From a virus (lineage: Duplodnaviria > Heunggongvirae > Uroviricota > Caudoviricetes): DNA of 16,101 nucleotides. How positions within the stretch are numbered: the first letter of the stretch is position 1; each line of letters begins with the position of its first letter. The stretch lies in IMG/VR virus record IMGVR_UViG_3300035516_000805; one strand, 5' to 3'. Shown piece after piece: positions 3,785 through 15,707 of the stretch. The notes under the pieces were generated by a model that searched no databases, was not told the DNA's origin, and saw only the letters and a program-made list of their open reading frames with translations. The translations under genes were made by a program, and so were the position numbers.

Positions 3785-3815
3785 AATAAAAGTCCTAAAA
3801 GGACTTTTATTTTTT
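3785..3815 (+). terminator. Intrinsic terminator whose core matches hairpin B of the double-hairpin units
   Basis: AATAAAAGTCCT-AAA-AGGACTTTTATT is a perfect 12-bp stem followed by TTTT. The 15-nt core AGTCCTAAAAGGACT is identical at 7853-7867 and 13406-13420. Confidence 0.75.
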
Positions 3816-5850: not shown

Positions 5851-5882
5851 ACTATTGACATTATTAATAATTCAATGTCATA
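5851..5882 (+). promoter_or_regulatory. 32-bp palindromic promoter/operator, copy 2
   Basis: 32/32 identical to 1424-1455. TTGACA at 5855-5860, candidate extended -10 TGnCATATT. Confidence 0.8.
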
Positions 5883-6210
5883 TTAAAAATGAAGATAAGA
5901 AATAATCTTTGAGAACAAAGCGACTGGACATCAAAGGATGTATTAGTGGGTAACAAAGATTATAGTAAAATGGATATTTTATTAAATTAAGAAACAAAAA
6001 ATTTTAAATAAAAAAAATGTGGTTAATATACTGTTATTCCCAAACATTATAAATGAAAATATTGCGATATTAGATTTTATAATCTTCATTGAAATATGAA
6101 GTTCAATAAAAAGTTTGGTTTTACTAACGAGTAAAATAAGTTGTAGTGAATAACGTTAAAATATTAATACATCGCAAGTAACTTTTAGGTAAAAGTTGTA
6201 CTACGATTTA
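5883..6210 (+). ncRNA. Candidate structured leader or ncRNA (unclassified)
   Basis: About 350 nt without a credible ORF directly after promoter copy 2, with several nested helices (see findings). The AT-rich background makes chance pairing likely for the short helices. Confidence 0.3.
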
Positions 6211-7772: not shown

Positions 7773-7805
7773 AATAGAAGTTCATAAAAGAACTTCTATT
7801 TTTTT
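7773..7805 (+). terminator. Intrinsic terminator after the HEPN-like gene
   Basis: AATAGAAGTTC / GAACTTCTATT, perfect 11 bp with loop ATAAAA, then a T run. Confidence 0.75.
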
Positions 7806-7877
7806 ACAGTTATTTTCTATTAAAAAACAGAACTTCCAACACTACTGATAGTAGTCCTAAAAGGACTACTATCTAAG
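7806..7877 (-). repeat. Double-hairpin unit U1 (second arm of hairpin A degenerate)
   Basis: Minus strand reads CTTAG-ATAGTAGTCCT-TTT-AGGACTACTAT-CAGTAGT-GTTGGAAGTTCT...AACTGT. Positions 7829-7877 match U6 except for a compensated stem pair and an inverted loop. The left boundary is approximate. Confidence 0.85.
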
Positions 7878-7952: not shown

Positions 7953-10900
7953 ATGAAAACATTAGAAGAATTAGGTATAGAAAAAACTGATTTAGTTAGC
8001 CATAATCATTGTGCCACTGTTCAAGATGCTGTTTGTGGCGGTGTTGCAATGTGCAAAGGCGCACAAAACGCCGGATATTCTGCAATTGCAATTACAGACC
8101 ACGGAAACTTTTGCGGTATGCAGGACTGCTTAGATTATGCTGCAAATACTAAAGGTGCTTTAAAAGTAATTTATGGACTTGAAGGTTATTTGAATTATAA
8201 AAATAAACAGTTAAATGAAAATAATGAATTAATTGAAGATAACACTTTATTGAGAAACCGTCATATTCTTTGGCTTGCAAAGGACGAACAGGGAAAGCAT
8301 TTAATTGATAAAGTAAATGCTCAGGCAGACTTATATCGTGGTGTTCCTTCTATTAATTTTGAAGATATTAAACAATTATCAGGTGGACATGTAATATGTC
8401 AGACTGCCTGTATCGCTTCTCCTGCCGGTGAATATTTATTACATAATTATAATCTGGAACATAAAAAGTCTTTAAAGAAAACACAAAGAAAGATTAAAAC
8501 TGATACAGTAGAAACTATTCCTGTTCATGACAAAGAACCTTGGACACAGGAAGAAATGTATGAGAAAGCTAAGAATTATGTAAAAGAATTACAGGATATT
8601 TTTGGAGAAGATTTATTTGTAGAAATACAATATCACGGTTTAGAGCAAGAGAAAATTGTATATCCGCAAATGGTAAAGATTGCTAAAGAGCTTAATCTTC
8701 CACTTGTTATTACAAATGATGCTCATATGCCGGATAATTCAAGGAAATCTATTAATCAAAGAAAAGTAGCTGTTTATAAGCGTTATAAAAATGCTGCTGA
8801 TGATGAGGAACGGGAAGATGCAAATGATGAAATGTATATTAAATCACAAGAAGAACTTGCCAATTTCTTATTAGATAGTGGTCTTTATGATATAGAAGAT
8901 ATCCGTGAAGGCTTTCATTCTTTGAATGTTATAAATGAGAGATGTACTTATGAACAGAAAATTGAAGACCATGCTCCAAAATATGTACCATCTGAAACAG
9001 AAAAAAAAGAAGATGGAAGCTTTGACAGTAAAGAAAAATTAAGAGAAATCGCAATGAACGGATTACTTAATTGGCGTTTCAAAAATGGTTTTCCTGATGA
9101 AGAAACAAAAAAGAAATATATTGACAGGTTAAATTATGAATTAGACGTTATCTGTAATATGGGTTATGCAGATTATTTTTTAATTGTAAAAGACTTTCTG
9201 GAATATGGACGAGTTATCGCAGGCGTACCTAAAGATAAAATGAGCGAAGTCCCGCTTACTATCGAAGAAGCAAAAATATGGTGTGAAGAACATCATTATA
9301 CTATAGGATTTGGTATTGGTGTAGGACGTGGTTCCGGTGCAGGTTCATTAGTAGCTTATACAACAGGTATAACCGGTGTAGACCCTATTCCATTTGATTT
9401 GATTTTTGAACGTTTTTTAAATCCACAAAGAATAACTATGCCTGATATAGACAGTGATTTAGCTATGTATGTCCGTGAAAAATGCGTTGAATATGTTATT
9501 CACAAATACGGAGAAAAGAATGTTGTTGGTATTCAGACAAAAGCTATTATTCACCCTAAAAAAGGATTATCTGATGCTAAAATCTATTTATGTGAAGAAA
9601 AAGGCTGGAACGCTCAGGAAACACAAAAATTAGTATCTTTGATTAGTAAAGAAATTCCGAATTTAGTAAACTGGGATAGTAAAGTTGACCCTTTAAACCC
9701 TAACAGTTTAACATATTATCAGTCTATTAGTGATAAATTTAAAGATACTCCACATGCAAAGGAATTGATTGATTTAAGTTATGACCTTGAAGGCTCATTA
9801 ACTTCTTTAAGTGTTCACGCAGCAGGTAAAATTATTTTTGACAATTCCTATGAGAATGGTGTTATTGGTTATACACCTACAACCACAGCAAAAAAAGATA
9901 ATCAAAAAGTTATTGAAATGGATATGTCACAGGCTGAACACGCCGGACTGTTAAAAATGGACTTTTTAGGACTTCGTACTTTAAATATTATCACAGAAGC
10001 AAAACAGTTGATATTTAGGGAAAGAAAAGAAGACGTTGATGTTACTCAGACTATTTTACAAAATGACGAAAAATGCGTTGAAATGTATAAGTTATTTTTA
10101 AAAGCTGAAACAGGTAACATATTTCAGTTTAACTCTACCGGTATGAAACAGACAATGCAGCAATTATTTGATGGTATAAAACTGCAGGATATAACTGCAA
10201 AGAAAATGATTGACTGGCTTACGGCTTTAAATGCACTTTATAGACCGGGACCTATGGATGAAATTCCTAATTTTATGAAAAACCGTAATGGTATTGTAAT
10301 AAAATTATCAGAAGACAAACGAATTGAAGATATTGTATCCGTAACAAATGGCATTATAGTTTATCAGGAACAGGTTATGCGTATTTGTACAGACTGTGCA
10401 GGTTTTTCTATGGGAGAAGCTGACAATATCCGTAAATTTATGAGTAAGAAAAAACCTGATAAAATTGCTGAATACAGAGAATATTTTATTTATGGCAATA
10501 AAGAAAAAGGTATTAAAGGCTGTGTTAATAATGGTATGTCTGAAAAAGATGCTATTGAGATTTATGATAAAATGACTGCCTTTGCCAGTTATGCATTTAA
10601 TAAATCTCATGCTTTGGTATATGCTTTAACAGCTATGTATTGTATGTATTTAAAGGCTAATTATCCGGCTGAGTATTTATGTGCATGTTTAAACTGGGTA
10701 AGTGGAACTAAGGCAGATATACAGAGAAAAGAAGCAATTGCAGATATACATAAAATGGGTGTTGAGTTAGTACCACCTGATATTAATAATTCAAATGAAG
10801 ATACAGATGTTAAAAATGGTAAGATTATTTATGGATTAAATATGATTAAAAATATTAACAGTATATCTGATATTTTAGCTGAAAGAAAAGAAAACGGTGT

Positions 10901-12116
10901 ATTCATTAATTTAAAAGACTTCTTAATTCGTACAAAGCCAAATAAAAAAGTATTTGAATCATTAATGTATGCAGGAGCCTTAGATAAGATAATTGGTTTT
11001 CCAAGACAGAATTTATTTGAAAATATTACGAATAGTGAGACAAAACCTTATGAACAATTACTTGAAATTGTTGGAAATTATAAAGATTCTGTTGAAAAAT
11101 TAGAAGCATTAAATAAAGCACTTCGTATCTTACATCAATGCAATGGAATGATTACGATTGAAGAATTCCAAGAAAAATGTATTTCAGCAGGAATCGCAGC
11201 TTCTAGTTTTAATTATAACACGAAAAAAGTTCCGGCAGTATCTAAATTAGAGGACCGTAGAGATAATATTAGAAATGCTATTTATGAATATGACCGACAA
11301 TTAAGTGACTTTATTGAAGAACTATCAGAAAGAAACGTACCGGAAACAAACGTAAAAGTAAAAGAGTATGAAATGTTAGGACATTTTATTAATCATCCAT
11401 TACAAGGAATACCAACATTGGAATTCATAAATGATGAAGGGAAAAGTCCAAATAAATTAACCGGTATATTAACAGATGTTAAGGTTAATGTATCAAAGAA
11501 AAGTGGTCAAAAATATATGACTGCAACACTTTCTGATGAATTAAATTCAATTGATGTAATTGTATTTGGAAATGCTATACAGAAAATTGAACAAAATAAT
11601 AAACTTAATTTGTTAACAAACGTATCTGCAGTTACATTAACAGGAAATCTTAATATAGAAGAGAATGAAGTTGATACTGGGGAGTATGATGAAGACGGTA
11701 ATTCAATCACAACTATGGAATATAAGAGAACATTTTTTGTTAATGATGTAGAACGATTTAACATTAAATCCTTAAACAAAAAATCAGAAATGTTTTTATT
11801 AAACGTTCCAAGTAGGGGATACTATGAAAGTAATTTAAAAGAGTATTTAAAATCAAAGAGTGTTGAAAAAGACGGTCTTCCACTTACAATCGTAGAAACC
11901 GGATATGATAAAGTAAATAATAGAACATATCATAATTTTCACCGGACAATGTTAGAACAGGAATTTACATTGTCAGAACACGCTTTAAGATTAAATTATA
12001 CGGATGAATTTAAAGAGCACGGAATTGAATTAAAAAAAGTTGACTTAAATAGTAATTCTTTCTTGGATAGTAGTCTGAAAACTACTATCAGTACTGTTAG
12101 TACTGTTGAAAGGTGA
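7953..12116 (+). CDS. dnaE: DNA polymerase III alpha subunit (DnaE type, PHP + polymerase + HhH + OB)
   Basis: PHP motifs HNH, TDHG, GLE, NDAH; GRGSGAGSLVAY; FERFLNP; MPDIDSD; KMDFLGLRTL; IVYQEQVM; YAFNKSHA; C-terminal OB fold. RBS AAGGAG. The last 17 codons derive from repeat U2. Confidence 0.97.
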   Translation: MKTLEELGIEKTDLVSHNHCATVQDAVCGGVAMCKGAQNAGYSAIAITDHGNFCGMQDCLDYAANTKGALKVIYGLEGYLNYKNKQLNENNELIEDNTLLRNRHILWLAKDEQGKHLIDKVNAQADLYRGVPSINFEDIKQLSGGHVICQTACIASPAGEYLLHNYNLEHKKSLKKTQRKIKTDTVETIPVHDKEPWTQEEMYEKAKNYVKELQDIFGEDLFVEIQYHGLEQEKIVYPQMVKIAKELNLPLVITNDAHMPDNSRKSINQRKVAVYKRYKNAADDEEREDANDEMYIKSQEELANFLLDSGLYDIEDIREGFHSLNVINERCTYEQKIEDHAPKYVPSETEKKEDGSFDSKEKLREIAMNGLLNWRFKNGFPDEETKKKYIDRLNYELDVICNMGYADYFLIVKDFLEYGRVIAGVPKDKMSEVPLTIEEAKIWCEEHHYTIGFGIGVGRGSGAGSLVAYTTGITGVDPIPFDLIFERFLNPQRITMPDIDSDLAMYVREKCVEYVIHKYGEKNVVGIQTKAIIHPKKGLSDAKIYLCEEKGWNAQETQKLVSLISKEIPNLVNWDSKVDPLNPNSLTYYQSISDKFKDTPHAKELIDLSYDLEGSLTSLSVHAAGKIIFDNSYENGVIGYTPTTTAKKDNQKVIEMDMSQAEHAGLLKMDFLGLRTLNIITEAKQLIFRERKEDVDVTQTILQNDEKCVEMYKLFLKAETGNIFQFNSTGMKQTMQQLFDGIKLQDITAKKMIDWLTALNALYRPGPMDEIPNFMKNRNGIVIKLSEDKRIEDIVSVTNGIIVYQEQVMRICTDCAGFSMGEADNIRKFMSKKKPDKIAEYREYFIYGNKEKGIKGCVNNGMSEKDAIEIYDKMTAFASYAFNKSHALVYALTAMYCMYLKANYPAEYLCACLNWVSGTKADIQRKEAIADIHKMGVELVPPDINNSNEDTDVKNGKIIYGLNMIKNINSISDILAERKENGVFINLKDFLIRTKPNKKVFESLMYAGALDKIIGFPRQNLFENITNSETKPYEQLLEIVGNYKDSVEKLEALNKALRILHQCNGMITIEEFQEKCISAGIAASSFNYNTKKVPAVSKLEDRRDNIRNAIYEYDRQLSDFIEELSERNVPETNVKVKEYEMLGHFINHPLQGIPTLEFINDEGKSPNKLTGILTDVKVNVSKKSGQKYMTATLSDELNSIDVIVFGNAIQKIEQNNKLNLLTNVSAVTLTGNLNIEENEVDTGEYDEDGNSITTMEYKRTFFVNDVERFNIKSLNKKSEMFLLNVPSRGYYESNLKEYLKSKSVEKDGLPLTIVETGYDKVNNRTYHNFHRTMLEQEFTLSEHALRLNYTDEFKEHGIELKKVDLNSNSFLDSSLKTTISTVSTVER

Positions 12117-12208
12117 AACTTAGATGGTAGTTTTATAAAACTACCATTAGTAGTGTTAGTTTGTTGGTAGATAAAATCTACCAACAAACTAACTGACCTT
12201 CCAACTAA
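12062..12208 (+). repeat. Double-hairpin unit U2 (outer), overlapping the dnaE 3' end and interrupted by U3
   Basis: With U3 removed it reads CTTGG-ATAGTAGTC-TGAA-AACTACTAT-CAGTACT-GTT(AGTACTGTT)GAAAGGT-GAA-ACCTTCCAAC-TAA. It includes a 9-bp tandem duplication. Confidence 0.8.
12119..12196 (+). repeat. Double-hairpin unit U3 (78 bp, nested in U2)
   Basis: CTTAG-ATGGTAGTTTT-AT-AAAACTACCAT-TAGTAGT-GTTAGTTTGTTGGTAGAT-AAA-ATCTACCAACAAACTAAC-TGA; perfect 11-12 bp and 18 bp stems. Confidence 0.9.
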
Positions 12209-12234
12209 CCGGTAAATTCCATAAAAGATTTACT

Positions 12235-12290
12235 AAAAAAATACACAGATTAAAAAAGTTCTTTAAACCTTATAATCTGTGTATCTTTTT
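12235..12290. terminator. Probable bidirectional terminator between dnaE and the convergent operon
   Basis: ATACACAGATTA (12241-12252) / TAATCTGTGTAT (12273-12284), flanked by an A run and a T run. The 20-nt loop is unusually long. Confidence 0.6.
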
Positions 12291-12304
12291 ATATTAGCAA
12301 TAAA

Positions 12305-12643
12305 TTATTTACGTTGAGAATTATAACGCCATTGCTTTCCATAACAGATATATCCGTATCCATATTCACAACCTGTTTTACATTTATGGATACAGTCAAC
12401 ACATTCATGTTTGTATAAGAATATGAACAATTTAGAATGATTAAACGGAATACATTTTTCACAGTCGGAATTCAGAATTCGTTTCCATTCTTCCCATAGA
12501 ATATTATCTTCTTCTTTTGTGTTCATGAAATTTTCATAAGAGCCGCTGTAAATAACCTGTTCATCTGTATCGAAGATTGTGATTTCTTCAATATTAAACT
12601 GACTTTCATAACCTTTTAAAATATTCTTAACTTTTTTCATCAT
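12305..12643 (-). CDS. Hypothetical protein with Cys-rich C-terminus
   Basis: RBS AAGGAG. CVDCIHKCKTGC...C motif suggests metal binding. Confidence 0.7.
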   Translation of the reverse strand: MMKKVKNILKGYESQFNIEEITIFDTDEQVIYSGSYENFMNTKEEDNILWEEWKRILNSDCEKCIPFNHSKLFIFLYKHECVDCIHKCKTGCEYGYGYICYGKQWRYNSQRK

Positions 12644-12647
12644 CTAT

Positions 12648-13145
12648 TTAGCTCCTTAAATGATTTTCAACAAAGTTAACAATTTCCATAGGTGTGCAGG
12701 CATCAAATCCACACTCACTCGCTGCTTCAATACTCTTACCATTATCATCAATAAACAACACTTGGTCATAATTAATGAGCATCGCAGCGGCAATACCTTT
12801 TATCATATCAATTTTTTCTTTTCGTTTTCCAACAGAAAAGTTTTCCAATTTATACCCATAATTAAGAGTAACCCATTCAATTTTTCTTTGCATGTGTGGA
12901 AAACCAATTGTAGCAGACAACAAGCCAAATGTCTTAGTTCCACAACTATTAGCGTAATCCGTAAATTCCTTCATATGAGCATTTGGTTCACATTCTTCAA
13001 GAGGATAAACCACCTGAATAGGCTTACAAATTACATTATTATTATATACAACGTCTGATGAAATTCCACTATGCTTACTATGGATACACAGTGTATCATC
13101 AAAATCAAACAATATTAGTTTATAATTTATTATATCTTTTATCAT
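12648..13145 (-). CDS. HAD-superfamily hydrolase/phosphatase
   Basis: Motif I LILFDFDDTL, motif II LLSAT, a Lys (KRKEK) and motif IV FIDD. RBS GAGAGG. Confidence 0.8.
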   Translation of the reverse strand: MIKDIINYKLILFDFDDTLCIHSKHSGISSDVVYNNNVICKPIQVVYPLEECEPNAHMKEFTDYANSCGTKTFGLLSATIGFPHMQRKIEWVTLNYGYKLENFSVGKRKEKIDMIKGIAAAMLINYDQVLFIDDNGKSIEAASECGFDACTPMEIVNFVENHLRS

Positions 13146-13170
13146 AATTAATTTTACCTCTCTTTACAAT

Positions 13171-13284
13171 AGAATCATATTCTCAACACTACTAATAGTA
13201 GCTTAAATAATAGTTCTAAAAGAACTATTATAAGTAATGTTGGAAGATTTTATCTTCCAACTAATCTGAAGACTACTATCTAAG
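13171..13284 (-). repeat. Double-hairpin unit U4 (outer), interrupted by U5; hairpin A degenerate
   Basis: With U5 removed the minus strand reads CTTAG-ATAGTAGTC-TTCA-GACTACTAT-TAGTAGT-GTTGAGAAT-ATG-ATTCT. The left boundary is approximate. Confidence 0.8.
13202..13264 (+). repeat. Double-hairpin unit U5 (63 bp, nested antiparallel in U4)
   Basis: CTTAA-ATAATAGTTCT-AAA-AGAACTATTAT-AAGTAAT-GTTGGAAGAT-TTT-ATCTTCCAAC-TAA; both stems are perfect. Confidence 0.9.
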
Positions 13285-13298
13285 CTAGTTTATGCATA

Positions 13299-13541
13299 TT
13301 ATCTATCAATATCATAGACTGTTGGCTGCTCATCAATTGCTTTAATGCACTCTAAAATAGTGGTGTAAATCACTTGCTGCATAGTCTTATCATAACTTAG
13401 CTAGTAGTCCTAAAAGGACTACTAGCAGTAGTGTTGGAAGTTCTAAAGAACTTCCAACTGACCTAGTTCGTCCGCCGGACATTCTGAATACGCCCAATCA
13501 CTTAAATAGGCGGATAGCTTATCAGCATCAATCAATCTCAT
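13299..13541 (-). pseudogene. MRLIDAD-type prophage gene interrupted by unit U6
   Basis: ATG at 13541 overlaps the upstream TGA. It reads MRLIDADKLSAYLSDWAYSECPADELG, then 66 bp of U6 with in-frame TAG stops (first at 13445-13443), then resumes in frame YDKTMQQVIYTTILECIKAIDEQPTVYDIDR*. Not in the ORF track. Confidence 0.85.
13396..13461 (+). repeat. Double-hairpin unit U6 (66 bp, cleanest copy)
   Basis: CTTAG-CTAGTAGTCCT-AAA-AGGACTACTAG-CAGTAGT-GTTGGAAGTTCT-AA-AGAACTTCCAAC-TGA; perfect 11 and 12 bp stems. Confidence 0.92.
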
Positions 13542-13861: not shown

Positions 13862-14172
13862 TATATAATATCACCTTCCATTCCTTTTAATTGTTCTATA
13901 ATTTCATTACCTAAAAAGTTTTCTAGTTCCTCTTGCAAAGTTTCACGTTCAATTCCTTTCAATGCCTGTTCTGCTTCTTCTTCTGATAGAAACCACGTCT
14001 TCTGAAAAGTTTTATCAGTACAAATCTTTTCTATTCCAAATTCTATATATTTATTTAATTCTGCATACCATCCCTGCGAATTTATTACAATCTTTTTAAT
14101 CTTTTGGTGATAGATTCTATTAAATTCTGACAGTTCATTTAAGATATTTAATTTATAATTTATTTTATTTGG
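13861..14172 (-). pseudogene. 5'-truncated prophage-type gene abutting the IS right end
   Basis: 103 open codons PNKINYKLNILNELSEFNRIYHQKIKKIVINSQGWY...KTWFLSEEEAEQALKG...GDII* with no start codon. The stop overlaps the next ATG. The frame runs right up to the IS end at 14174. Confidence 0.75.
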
Positions 14173-14330
14173 AGTGAACTACCCACCACTTATAGAAGTG
14201 GGGGCTTCTAAGATGTTAATACATCTATTTAAGAAGTTTGATATTTAAGTTTCCACCTATTACTAGGCAATCCTTATTCTTACAGGCGTGTCCACTTCGC
14301 CTCTACTGTATAGGATAGTTAAATCCACAA
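14154..14330 (-). ncRNA. Predicted TnpB omegaRNA (reRNA) with flank-derived guide
   Basis: TnpB RNAs are known to derive from the tnpB 3' end and right end, with the guide from the flank. Visible hairpin CTTCT-AGATGT/ACATCT-AGAAG plus the right-end hairpin. Guide would begin UCCAAAUAAAAUAAAUUAUA (14173-14154). The 5' boundary is a guess. Confidence 0.65.
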
Positions 14331-15670
14331 CATTACTTTTACATAATATATTTAATGCTCCATTAACATCAGCATTAAGTGTTTTTCCATTAGAACATTG
14401 ATACATCCCTCTGTGAATACGCTTACCACTAAATATATAAATTTTAGGATTATCATTATTATAAACAGGAATTTTATCTTTATCAAAAAATGAAGCTTTT
14501 GATGTATAACTTTCTTCCTGTTTGATAAATACAATATTATTTAATTCACATAGATATTCAAGTTTTTCACGAAGTTTACCATATGGAATATTCACAAAGG
14601 TCTGATTATTAACTTTACCTATGTTTACATTTCTTTGAAATGTTTCATTATAACCTACAATAAGAGTGCCTATATTATTAATAATGCAATAATCTATAAT
14701 TTTACGAGCAACTTTATTCATATAATCATCAACCTTATTATTACGGTTACGAGTTAGAATTTTCATTCGATTGGTAGGATTTTTACCATAATGCTGTTTG
14801 TCTTTAATACTTTGTAAACGAGCAAACTCTTTATTATACCACTGGTTAATAGATTTAAGCTTTTTCCCATCAATAATAAAGGACCTTCCACTACTTGATA
14901 CAGCAGTTACGAGATTATTAATACCAAGGTCAAGAGCAAGTACATTGTTTTTATTAAGATTTCTTTGAATACATTCAGCTTCATAGGTGTACTGAATTTC
15001 AAAGAACCTTGCATTGGATTTTGGTATAATTCGAATTTCTTTAACTTTTTTATCAAGTAATACCGGCGGAATTGTAATCTCAATAGATTTATGGGTTTTC
15101 TTATATATATTAGAAAATGGTAAAATCAATTTATTCCCATTAAATCTTATAAAACCTATAACAAGAGTGGTATATCCATCTTTTGGAAGATATTTAGGTA
15201 ATTTACAATCTTTAAAAGCATACTTACCCTTTTTTGCAAGTTTTAAAAGTCCAAAGAATGACTTAAAGCTACCATCTACTTCTTTAAGAATTTGTTGTGC
15301 CATATTTGAATTAAGCAGCTTATAATTATCAGATGATTTTAAAAGGGCATAATTTTTTTCATAATTAAGATATTCGCCTTCATTAAAATAATATTGCCTA
15401 ACATTATAAATTGCCTGATTTGTTAAGTTTTTTGCGATATGGCAAAGTTCCTTAATAGAATTATAATCTTCTTTTGACAGATGTTTTACTTGTTGTTTGA
15501 CAGTTAAATACATATGATTTTTTCTCCTTTCTATAGATTTAGAGAATACTTTCTCTATGTATATATTATGACATGCATTTTACCAAAATTCCATATTTTT
15601 AGTAAAATATATTTATTATTAACATTCATCTTCCACCTATAGAGGTGGAAGTATTCTGTTAAATTTTCAG
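14174..15670 (-). mobile_element. Non-autonomous IS200/IS605-family element (IS1341-like, tnpB only), 1497 bp
   Basis: Left end: TTTAT|, then 15 nt, then AATA, then hairpin CTTCCACCT-CTAT-AGGTGGAAG (15630-15651). Right end: GAAG, then hairpin CCCCCACTT-CTAT-AAGTGGTGGG, then TAGTTCAC|. Spacing matches the known IS608 end layout. Only 156 nt lie between the left end and tnpB, so there is no tnpA. Confidence 0.9.
14263..15513 (-). CDS. tnpB: TnpB RNA-guided endonuclease (rearranged RuvC-II type)
   Basis: N-terminal AKNLTNQAIYNVRQ, RuvC-I ALDLGINN, RuvC-II region LIVGYN without the canonical Glu, EESYTSK, RuvC-III NADVNGALNI. RBS AAAGGAG. Confidence 0.93.
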   Translation of the reverse strand: MYLTVKQQVKHLSKEDYNSIKELCHIAKNLTNQAIYNVRQYYFNEGEYLNYEKNYALLKSSDNYKLLNSNMAQQILKEVDGSFKSFFGLLKLAKKGKYAFKDCKLPKYLPKDGYTTLVIGFIRFNGNKLILPFSNIYKKTHKSIEITIPPVLLDKKVKEIRIIPKSNARFFEIQYTYEAECIQRNLNKNNVLALDLGINNLVTAVSSSGRSFIIDGKKLKSINQWYNKEFARLQSIKDKQHYGKNPTNRMKILTRNRNNKVDDYMNKVARKIIDYCIINNIGTLIVGYNETFQRNVNIGKVNNQTFVNIPYGKLREKLEYLCELNNIVFIKQEESYTSKASFFDKDKIPVYNNDNPKIYIFSGKRIHRGMYQCSNGKTLNADVNGALNILCKSNVVDLTILYSRGEVDTPVRIRIA

Positions 15671-15675
15671 ATAAA

Positions 15676-15707
15676 TATGACATTGTATTACTAATAATGT
15701 CAACAGT
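15676..15707 (-). promoter_or_regulatory. 32-bp palindromic promoter/operator, copy 3
   Basis: Minus strand ACTGTTGACATTATTAGTAATACAATGTCATA is 29/32 identical to copies 1 and 2, with both palindrome arms intact. It ends immediately before the IS target TTTAT. Confidence 0.8.

Follow-up and report, generated by a model that had tools for sequence, protein, structure and literature searches.

Described systems in which small hairpin-forming repeats move or are invaded offer several points of comparison for the subject of this work, six copies (units U1 to U6) of a small double-hairpin repeat lying in a stretch of 16,101 nucleotides (nt) of DNA, the Caudoviricetes record IMGVR_UViG_3300035516_000805, which is called the window throughout. 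The best documented case is that of REP sequences, found as BIMEs and REPINs together with RAYT enzymes. The REP-associated Y1 enzyme acts on single strands only and needs a GTAG-tagged REP in cis; it then cleaves at short C^T motifs along a surrounding stretch of more than 400 nt, and strand transfer is possible (PMC3333891). In the RAYT/BIME model, the enzyme seated on a resident REP cuts nearby single-stranded DNA, and clusters grow by insertion near residents (PMC3333891). Both this enzyme and the IS200/IS605 family of insertion sequences (IS) leave zero target repeats, and the single-strand 'peel and paste' chemistry of the latter would yield junctions of the kind described below (PMC3333891). 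Another group of elements, comprising IS1397, ISKpn1, IS621 and ISPpu9/10, targets REP hairpins, REP units being hot spots of IS insertion (PMC1525189). Finally, fungal and sponge mitochondria harbour double-hairpin and repetitive hairpin-forming elements, AT- or GC-rich and with two or three hairpins (PMC2800124).

Two of the six units, U3 and U5, inserted later inside the older copies U2 and U4, and a third, U6, is a precise insertion into a gene. These three events define the ends of the units and reveal a likely target motif. The units probably constitute a private family of small non-autonomous mobile elements of 63-78 nt, with CTTAR...CTRA ends, two perfect hairpins, a GTAG-type tag and no target duplication, moved by an enzyme of the HUH type.

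Organization of the units

The units were located within the window by repeat search, hairpin listing and alignment (n = 6 copies; Table 1), and repeat search and alignment bore out the six positions proposed by a first-pass annotation of the sequence. In unit orientation all are built on one scaffold, comprising CTTAG, hairpin B (ATAGTAG...CTACTAT), the linker (C/T)AGTAGT, hairpin A (GTTGGAAG...CTTCCAAC) and CT(G/A)A. Stem tips and loops vary among copies; all intact stems are perfectly complementary over 10-18 bp, and the sole mismatch (A-C) occurs in the interrupted hairpin A of U2. The tetranucleotide GTAG stands just 5' of hairpin A in four of the six units (U1, U3, U4 and U6) and is one base off in U5 (GTAA) and U2 (GTAC); the stem of hairpin B also contains GTAG/CTAC. 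A 9-nt linker insertion is common to U2 and U3. A profile made from the intact units gave no additional convincing copy in the window.

Table 1. Positions of the units and of associated features (numbered from the first nucleotide of the window)
Feature	Position	Strand	Description
U1	7829-7877	-	Ends in hairpin A loop; profile positions 1-49
U2, left part	12062-12118	+	CTTGG, hairpin B (ATAGTAGT/ACTACTAT), linker carrying the 9-nt duplication, then the hairpin A 5' arm and loop
U2, right part	12197-12208	+	3' arm of hairpin A (CCTTCCAAC) and terminal TAA; end possibly up to 12212
U3	12119-12196	+	Inner unit, 78 nt; perfect 11-bp and 18-bp stems; at loop/3'-arm junction of U2 hairpin A
U4, part 1	~13165-13201	-	Decayed hairpin A, linker, one hairpin B arm (ATAGTAG on + strand)
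U4, part 2	13265-13284	-	TC-TGAA-GACTACTAT-CTAAG on + strand: remainder of hairpin B and CTTAG end
U5	13202-13264	+	Inner unit, 63 nt; perfect 11-bp and 10-bp stems; inside U4 hairpin B arm, 2 nt from loop
U6	13396-13461	+	Full non-nested unit, 66 nt; splits 58-codon gene; control and definition of unit ends
U6-split gene	13299-13541	-	N-terminal half 13462-13541, C-terminal half 13299-13395; both match phrog_20593
Non-unit hairpin, 5' arm	12050-12061	+	TAGTAATTCTTT; pairs with 12224-12235 after removal of U2 and U3
Non-unit hairpin, 3' arm	12224-12235	+	AAAGATTTACTA; partner arm of 12050-12061
dnaE (Pol III alpha, 1387 aa)	7953-12116	+	Tail rewritten by U2
tnpB	14263-15513	-	In TnpB-only insertion sequence

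Variation of the hairpins has two further aspects. A 23-nt core of hairpin B, loop included, is the same in U1 (7849-7871) and U6 (13402-13424) on one absolute strand with the units inverted; the hairpin B loop of these two copies is flipped relative to the unit, as though the tip inverts at the DNA level. Two ordinary T-run terminator hairpins (3785-3811 and 7773-7800) also have cores in common with unit hairpins: the 15-nt AGTCCTAAAAGGACT of a terminator hairpin recurs unchanged as the hairpin B core of U1 and U6, and GAAGTTC...GAACTTC of a terminator hairpin matches the tip of hairpin A. Chance is an unlikely source of this sharing, which suggests that hairpin tips are exchanged or that the terminators come from decayed units.

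Insertion of units into older units

The two nesting events are genuine and independent insertions, as the first-pass annotation had it, and in silico deletion of each insert rebuilds its host unit. U3 lies in hairpin A of U2 in the same orientation, between GTTGAAAGG-TGAAA and CCTTCCAAC, with a junction ambiguity of 1 nt. U5 lies in hairpin B of U4 in the opposite orientation, between ATAGTAG and TC-TGAA-GACTACTAT, with zero junction ambiguity. An nhmmer profile made from uninterrupted units only (U3, U5 and U6) was searched against the native window and against versions of it from which a single unit had been deleted. Deletion of U3 extended the match of U2 from profile positions 1-43 (19.7 bits) to positions 1-65 (25.7 bits, E = 6e-7), and deletion of U5 raised that of U4 from 9.6 bits (E = 0.07) to 21.0 bits (E = 2e-5, positions 1-41). 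Deletion of U6, which served as control, produced no new profile match at the U6 junction.

The restored hairpins are typical of the family. Hairpin A of U2, once rejoined (GTTGAAAGG-TGAAA-CCTTCCAAC), has 9 bp, and its split arms pair around U3 in a single-strand DNA fold (z = -8.5). The rejoined hairpin B of U4 (ATAGTAGTC-TGAA-GACTACTAT) is 21/22 identical to hairpin B of U2. Two caveats apply, namely that hairpin A of U4 exists in decayed form only and that U1 ends within its hairpin A loop. The stems of the inner units are perfect and those of the outer units are worn, with the A-C mismatch in hairpin A of U2 and a degenerate hairpin A in U4; this fits the inner copies being younger.

Insertion into a gene and a rewritten dnaE tail

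Evidence of another kind comes from U6, a unit lodged in coding DNA. Deleting its exact 66 nt joins two short open reading frames (ORFs) of the minus strand in frame, giving a single ORF of 58 amino acids (aa). The N-terminal 26 residues match positions 1-25 of the phage family phrog_20593 (E = 1.7e-4), the C-terminal 31 residues match positions 23-44 (E = 4e-4), and the joined ORF matches the same family with E = 5.5e-12. The upstream piece of the split gene now stops at a TAG in the hairpin A loop of U6. No intact homologue of the 58-aa protein (31-102 aa range) was found in the protein collection.

U2 has altered a gene in a different way, as the final 17 codons of dnaE and its TGA stop lie within this unit (12062-12116); without U2, dnaE would stop two codons later (NSNSFR-stop). 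In three DnaE proteins of other contigs, nearly identical to that of the window, the tail is 3 residues shorter and reads TTLSSVGR-stop. U2 is therefore present in these relatives; its GTTGGAAGG arm is perfect there and its linker has no 9-nt duplication. Their VGR-stop tails imply that the A-C mismatch of hairpin A is absent there, and their shorter tails indicate that the 9-nt duplication arose in the lineage of the window. For one relative, with a contig of 1088 nt, a spacer free of U3 should yield ~45 aa of the HAD-like gene downstream; no such fragment has been recorded, which is weakly consistent with U3 being present in that relative.

Ends of the element and target motif

The ends of the element are 5'-CTTAR...CTRA-3'. 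They are fixed by three independent restorations, those of hairpin B of U4 (rebuilt by removal of the exact 63 nt of U5), of hairpin A of U2 and of the gene split by U6. The terminal symmetry of the units amounts to only 4 nt (TTAG/CTAA). Flanking direct repeats were found at none of the copies, and target duplication is absent: three of four copies allow for one duplicated C at the very most, and U5 for not even that. The TC that follows U5 has its partner in the restored stem and hence belongs to the host. Such precise, duplication-free entry of an element with hairpins at its ends is the signature of HUH single-strand transposition, known from IS200/IS605 and REP/RAYT (PMC3333891).

All four mapped sites (U2, U3, U5 and U6) are directly followed by YC (P about 1e-5). 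Three of them are followed by CC (P about 3e-5), a dinucleotide with a frequency of 2% in this DNA. Viewed on the opposite strand, insertion occurs 3' of GG or GA. Insertion 5' of YC is thus the likely target motif, a feature absent from the first-pass annotation.

Frequency of nesting

It had been proposed that two nestings among six copies are far more than random placement would give. The statistic used here is the probability that at least two of five later insertions fall within a host unit, the host units totalling 241 nt. The proposal holds if every base of the window is a target (P = 0.002). It fails under more realistic assumptions: the probability is 0.14 if only the other non-coding DNA (~1.5 kb) is permissive, 0.10 to 0.81 if insertion is limited to the 1.5-kb cluster region, and 0.31 (CC) or 0.25 (YC) if sites must be non-coding and bear the motif. 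Host units hold 12 of the 54 CC/GG and 40 of the 205 YC/GR motifs of permissive DNA (~20%), and with this share nesting is about as frequent as expected. Once only harmless motif-bearing sites are counted, the frequency of nesting is therefore roughly that of chance. The unit is then an ordinary REP-like selfish repeat, and the nestings are not proof of cruciform-targeted insertion.

Position of insertion sites relative to hairpins

A preference of insertion for extruded hairpins or cruciforms, or for breaks made at them, had been put forward from the two nestings. It is not established, given that the enrichment is gone under realistic null models, that the sites share the YC motif and that the site of U6 is free of hairpins. 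Some sign of it is nevertheless seen among the mapped sites: with U2 and U3 removed, the site of U2 lies at the arm/loop junction of a non-unit hairpin (Table 1). With an apical site defined as one lying at most 2 nt from the loop of a hairpin of at least 8 paired bases, at most one mismatch and a loop of 3-16 nt, a definition chosen after seeing the data, three of the four sites are apical, against a background of 6% of all junctions (P = 0.0009) or 22% of non-coding junctions (P = 0.037). No hairpin forms at the insertion site of U6. A structural preference for hairpin tips is thus possible but unproven.

Comparison with described elements

The units share several features with the REP, BIME and REPIN sequences associated with RAYTs in E. 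coli and Pseudomonas (PMC3333891, PMC2817692). They are short, repeated and mostly intergenic palindromes with GTAG 5' of a hairpin, they form mosaic clusters with zero target duplication, and occasional copies lie at gene ends. The stems here are perfect and AT-rich, however, whereas the E. coli RAYT requires a stem mismatch or bulge (PMC3333891). Moreover, a unit consists of two different tandem hairpins with fixed CTTAR...CTRA ends and not of two inverted REPs, the units are carried by a plasmid-like element, their junctions are not C^T, and the 16-kb window contains no RAYT gene, which in REP-bearing genomes typically has repeats on either side.

Elements of the IS200/IS605 family and the gene-less PATEs share with the units subterminal hairpins at both ends and precise, duplication-free insertion beside a short motif. 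They differ in that the two hairpins of a unit are dissimilar and its cleavage points would be only 3-5 nt from the hairpin feet; in addition, the ends of the TnpB element of the window show no match to the unit profile, and no tnpA occurs in the window. The IS that target REPs also resemble the units as mobile DNA landing specifically inside repeated palindromes (PMC1525189), but they are full-size IS3 and IS110 family members that encode transposases of their own, and the invader here is a further copy of the small repeat itself. The mitochondrial elements (PMC2800124) have conserved stems, spread in intergenic DNA and in variable parts of genes, and are kept in transcripts, as is the case for the units; they belong to organelle genomes, have zero sequence relation to the units, and in sponges their double hairpins are attributed to tandem insertion and not to nesting.

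The comparison extends to other classes. Classical miniature inverted-repeat transposable elements, mobilized by DDE transposases, differ from the units, which have no target-site duplication and a terminal symmetry of just 4 nt. Intrinsic terminators, in which a GC-rich stem is followed by a T-run where a transcription unit ends, differ as well, since a terminator scan calls only hairpin A of U5, on the minus strand and with a poor tail. Rolling-circle elements of the IS91/Helitron type insert without duplication, have a fixed 5' end, carry a hairpin ahead of a CTRR 3' end and use a Y2 HUH Rep. They are a tentative lead: the 3' CTGA/CTAA of the units fits CTRR and a hairpin abuts it, but the units have CT in place of TC at the 5' end and are not flanked by A^T, and no Rep was observed. 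The best reading is that the units behave most like mini-elements of the REP/BIME or IS200/IS605 kind, of which they would be a private variant.

Searches for related DNA in sequence collections were negative, with zero matches in a phage collection and chance matches only in a plasmid collection. Four unit patterns and DnaE, searched against viral contigs, returned chance matches only, and neither DnaE nor a 25-base unit pattern found a match in a genome collection. A metagenome scan with a loose unit pattern gave 100 chance matches, none with hairpin A or with similarity to the window.

Several other identities were considered and rejected. The units are not derivatives of the TnpB element, at the ends of which (14183-14204 and 15630-15651) the unit profile finds nothing. 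The genes bracketed by the clusters do not form a 'REPtron', as the 165-aa HAD-like protein has a DxDxT motif and not an HUH motif; the other bracketed gene encodes a Cys-rich protein without Pfam match. Zero Rfam matches were obtained for the units, so that they are not a known RNA family. Programmed translational bypass of the units was also discarded, as nothing points to it and their stop codons simply end the ORFs.

Possible modes of movement

In the mechanism considered probable, the units would move as single-stranded DNA by means of an HUH-type enzyme, either a Y1 protein resembling TnpA or RAYT or another HUH nickase, that would recognize the hairpins and join the element directly 5' of YC, usually CC. 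Insertions would survive chiefly in non-essential DNA, of which the units form a large local share; they also contain about one-fifth of the scarce target motifs with C, and an enzyme seated on a resident unit may cut nearby. Nesting would then be expected and would call for no cruciform-directed targeting, although a preference for hairpin tips may contribute. Several observations weigh against this mechanism. Annotation of the window proteins detected no HUH or Y1 gene in the 16 kb, and the sole transposon-type gene is tnpB, whose end hairpins are unlike the units. The perfect stems contrast with the imperfect stem needed by the E. coli RAYT. Cleavage at C^T on both sides would require excision of 62 or 67 nt for U6 and not of 66, which breaks the frame, and would leave the host hairpins unrestored. 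The exact junction of U6 is set by the reading frame, with a 1-in-3 chance of coincidence, and the target motif derives from four sites, among which the boundary of U2 is less certain. Lastly, the insertion of U3 and U5 is read from the DNA of the window.

Among the alternatives, a tentative one is tethered targeting, in which an enzyme bound to a resident unit cuts or joins single-stranded DNA only nearby, so that new copies arrive within or next to old ones, irrespective of any hairpin at the target. Five of the six units lie within 1.4 kb (12062-13461), two of them nested and U6 only 112 nt from U4/U5. The E. coli REP enzyme likewise needs a functional REP in cis and cleaves over more than 400 nt around it, and BIME growth by insertion into resident BIMEs has been proposed (PMC3333891); the idea of self-amplifying clusters in the first-pass annotation is essentially this published RAYT/BIME model. 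The 9-nt linker insertion found in U2 and U3 and absent from the U2 of relatives suggests a local origin of U3. Against tethering, no candidate enzyme is present in the window, U1 stands alone at 7.8 kb, and in a single window of 16 kb tethering looks the same as survivorship at a place with few genes where transcription converges. Insertion directed by DNA structure, with a preference for extruded hairpins, cruciforms or breaks at their tips and autocatalytic growth of palindrome clusters, is more doubtful. The apical position of three of the four sites, including that of U2 in a non-unit hairpin, speaks for it against the background of all DNA and, more faintly, of non-coding DNA; U1 ends exactly within a hairpin loop, the hairpin B core of U1 and U6 keeps the same absolute strand despite inversion of the units, which suggests hairpin processing at the DNA level, and ORF 827-1363 has a weak RuvC-like match. 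On the other side, U6 inserted at a site forming no hairpin, and the position relative to the loop varies across the three apical sites (5' junction, 3' junction and 2 nt inside an arm). The YC motif accounts for the sites at least equally well, nesting is unremarkable under the non-coding and motif null models, and the hairpin criterion is lenient, being satisfied by 22% of non-coding junctions, and was set post hoc. A bolder version, which we regard as improbable, is that of a self-nesting element whose integration is directed to hairpin tips, its own and those of others, by an enzyme of a kind not so far linked to such repeats, either a relaxase or Rep-type HUH nickase of the replicon or a cruciform-cutting nuclease coupled to repair, building autocatalytic palindrome clusters on a conjugative or phage-like replicon.

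Two further explanations dispense with mobility altogether. It is very unlikely that no insertion took place and that full units happen to lie between outer halves that were truncated independently or arose by recombination or slippage between palindromes. Truncation does occur in the family, in U1, which stops within the hairpin A loop, and in U4, which is without a proper hairpin A, and the proteins of relatives include no record of the short piece of the downstream gene expected from a contig without U3. Both flank pairs are nonetheless in the correct order and orientation, are complementary in the variable part of the stem, and rejoin into a family-typical hairpin exactly at the CTTAR...CTRA ends that also bound U6; inner and outer stem sequences differ, so that simple duplication does not explain them. 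The least credible explanation, to which hardly any weight is given, is that the hairpins are selected RNA or transcription signals, such as terminators or protectors of mRNA 3' ends, stacked by selection for stronger structure. U2 and U3 do follow dnaE, the clusters are intergenic, and hairpin A and B cores recur in the terminator hairpins at 3785-3811 and 7773-7800. Yet the units are without T-runs, a separate bidirectional terminator lies after U2/U3 (~12236-12276), both unit orientations occur, one unit splits a gene and another rewrites the tail of DnaE, and no match to Rfam was obtained.

Genomic setting

The window has a GC content of 28% and encodes ClpP, a TraG/VirD4-type coupling protein, dnaE, tnpB and many small genes without Pfam match. 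Its proteins are recorded from a metagenome contig of 91,929 nt. The closest DnaE genes in the plasmid collection are those of Clostridia plasmids, with ~30-34% identity. The replicon is read as a large plasmid- or phage-like element of ~92 kb, AT-rich and from an uncultivated low-GC bacterium. GC skew and gene orientation flip sign at ~12000-12300, and the U2/U3 cluster lies exactly at this point of convergence, which may be a meeting point of replication forks or transcripts.

Some neighbouring features are of separate interest. An ORF with a GIY-YIG-type domain (T5orf172/MUG113) occupies 342-830 and adjoins ORF 827-1363, whose RuvC-like match (E = 2e-4) is under the Pfam cut-off; a junction-resolving nuclease encoded here would bear on any idea of cruciform processing. 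A promoter- or operator-like palindrome, TTGACATTATTAATAATTCAATGTCA, occurs three times upstream of genes (1424-1468, 5851-5895 and 15674-15707), and the motif TTTTACATTATT is present at ~7040 and ~7915. In the TnpB-only insertion sequence (14171-15660), matching subterminal hairpins at 15630-15651 and 14183-14204 flank tnpB, both with an ATAG loop on the plus strand. This element lies between the promoter-like palindrome at 15674-15707 and a minus-strand ORF devoid of start codon (13862 to ~14170), which it probably severed from its start or promoter.

Implications

Elements inside elements are weak evidence for structural targeting, and two nestings among six copies are unremarkable when the count is limited to survivable sites that bear the motif. 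If a preference for hairpin tips were true, the locus would be a clean natural example of the build-up of a palindrome cluster of the BIME kind. The exact ends of a small mobile repeat not described before can be read from the nestings and the split gene; these ends, together with the likely YC motif and the absence of target duplication, narrow the search for the enzyme that mobilizes the unit family.

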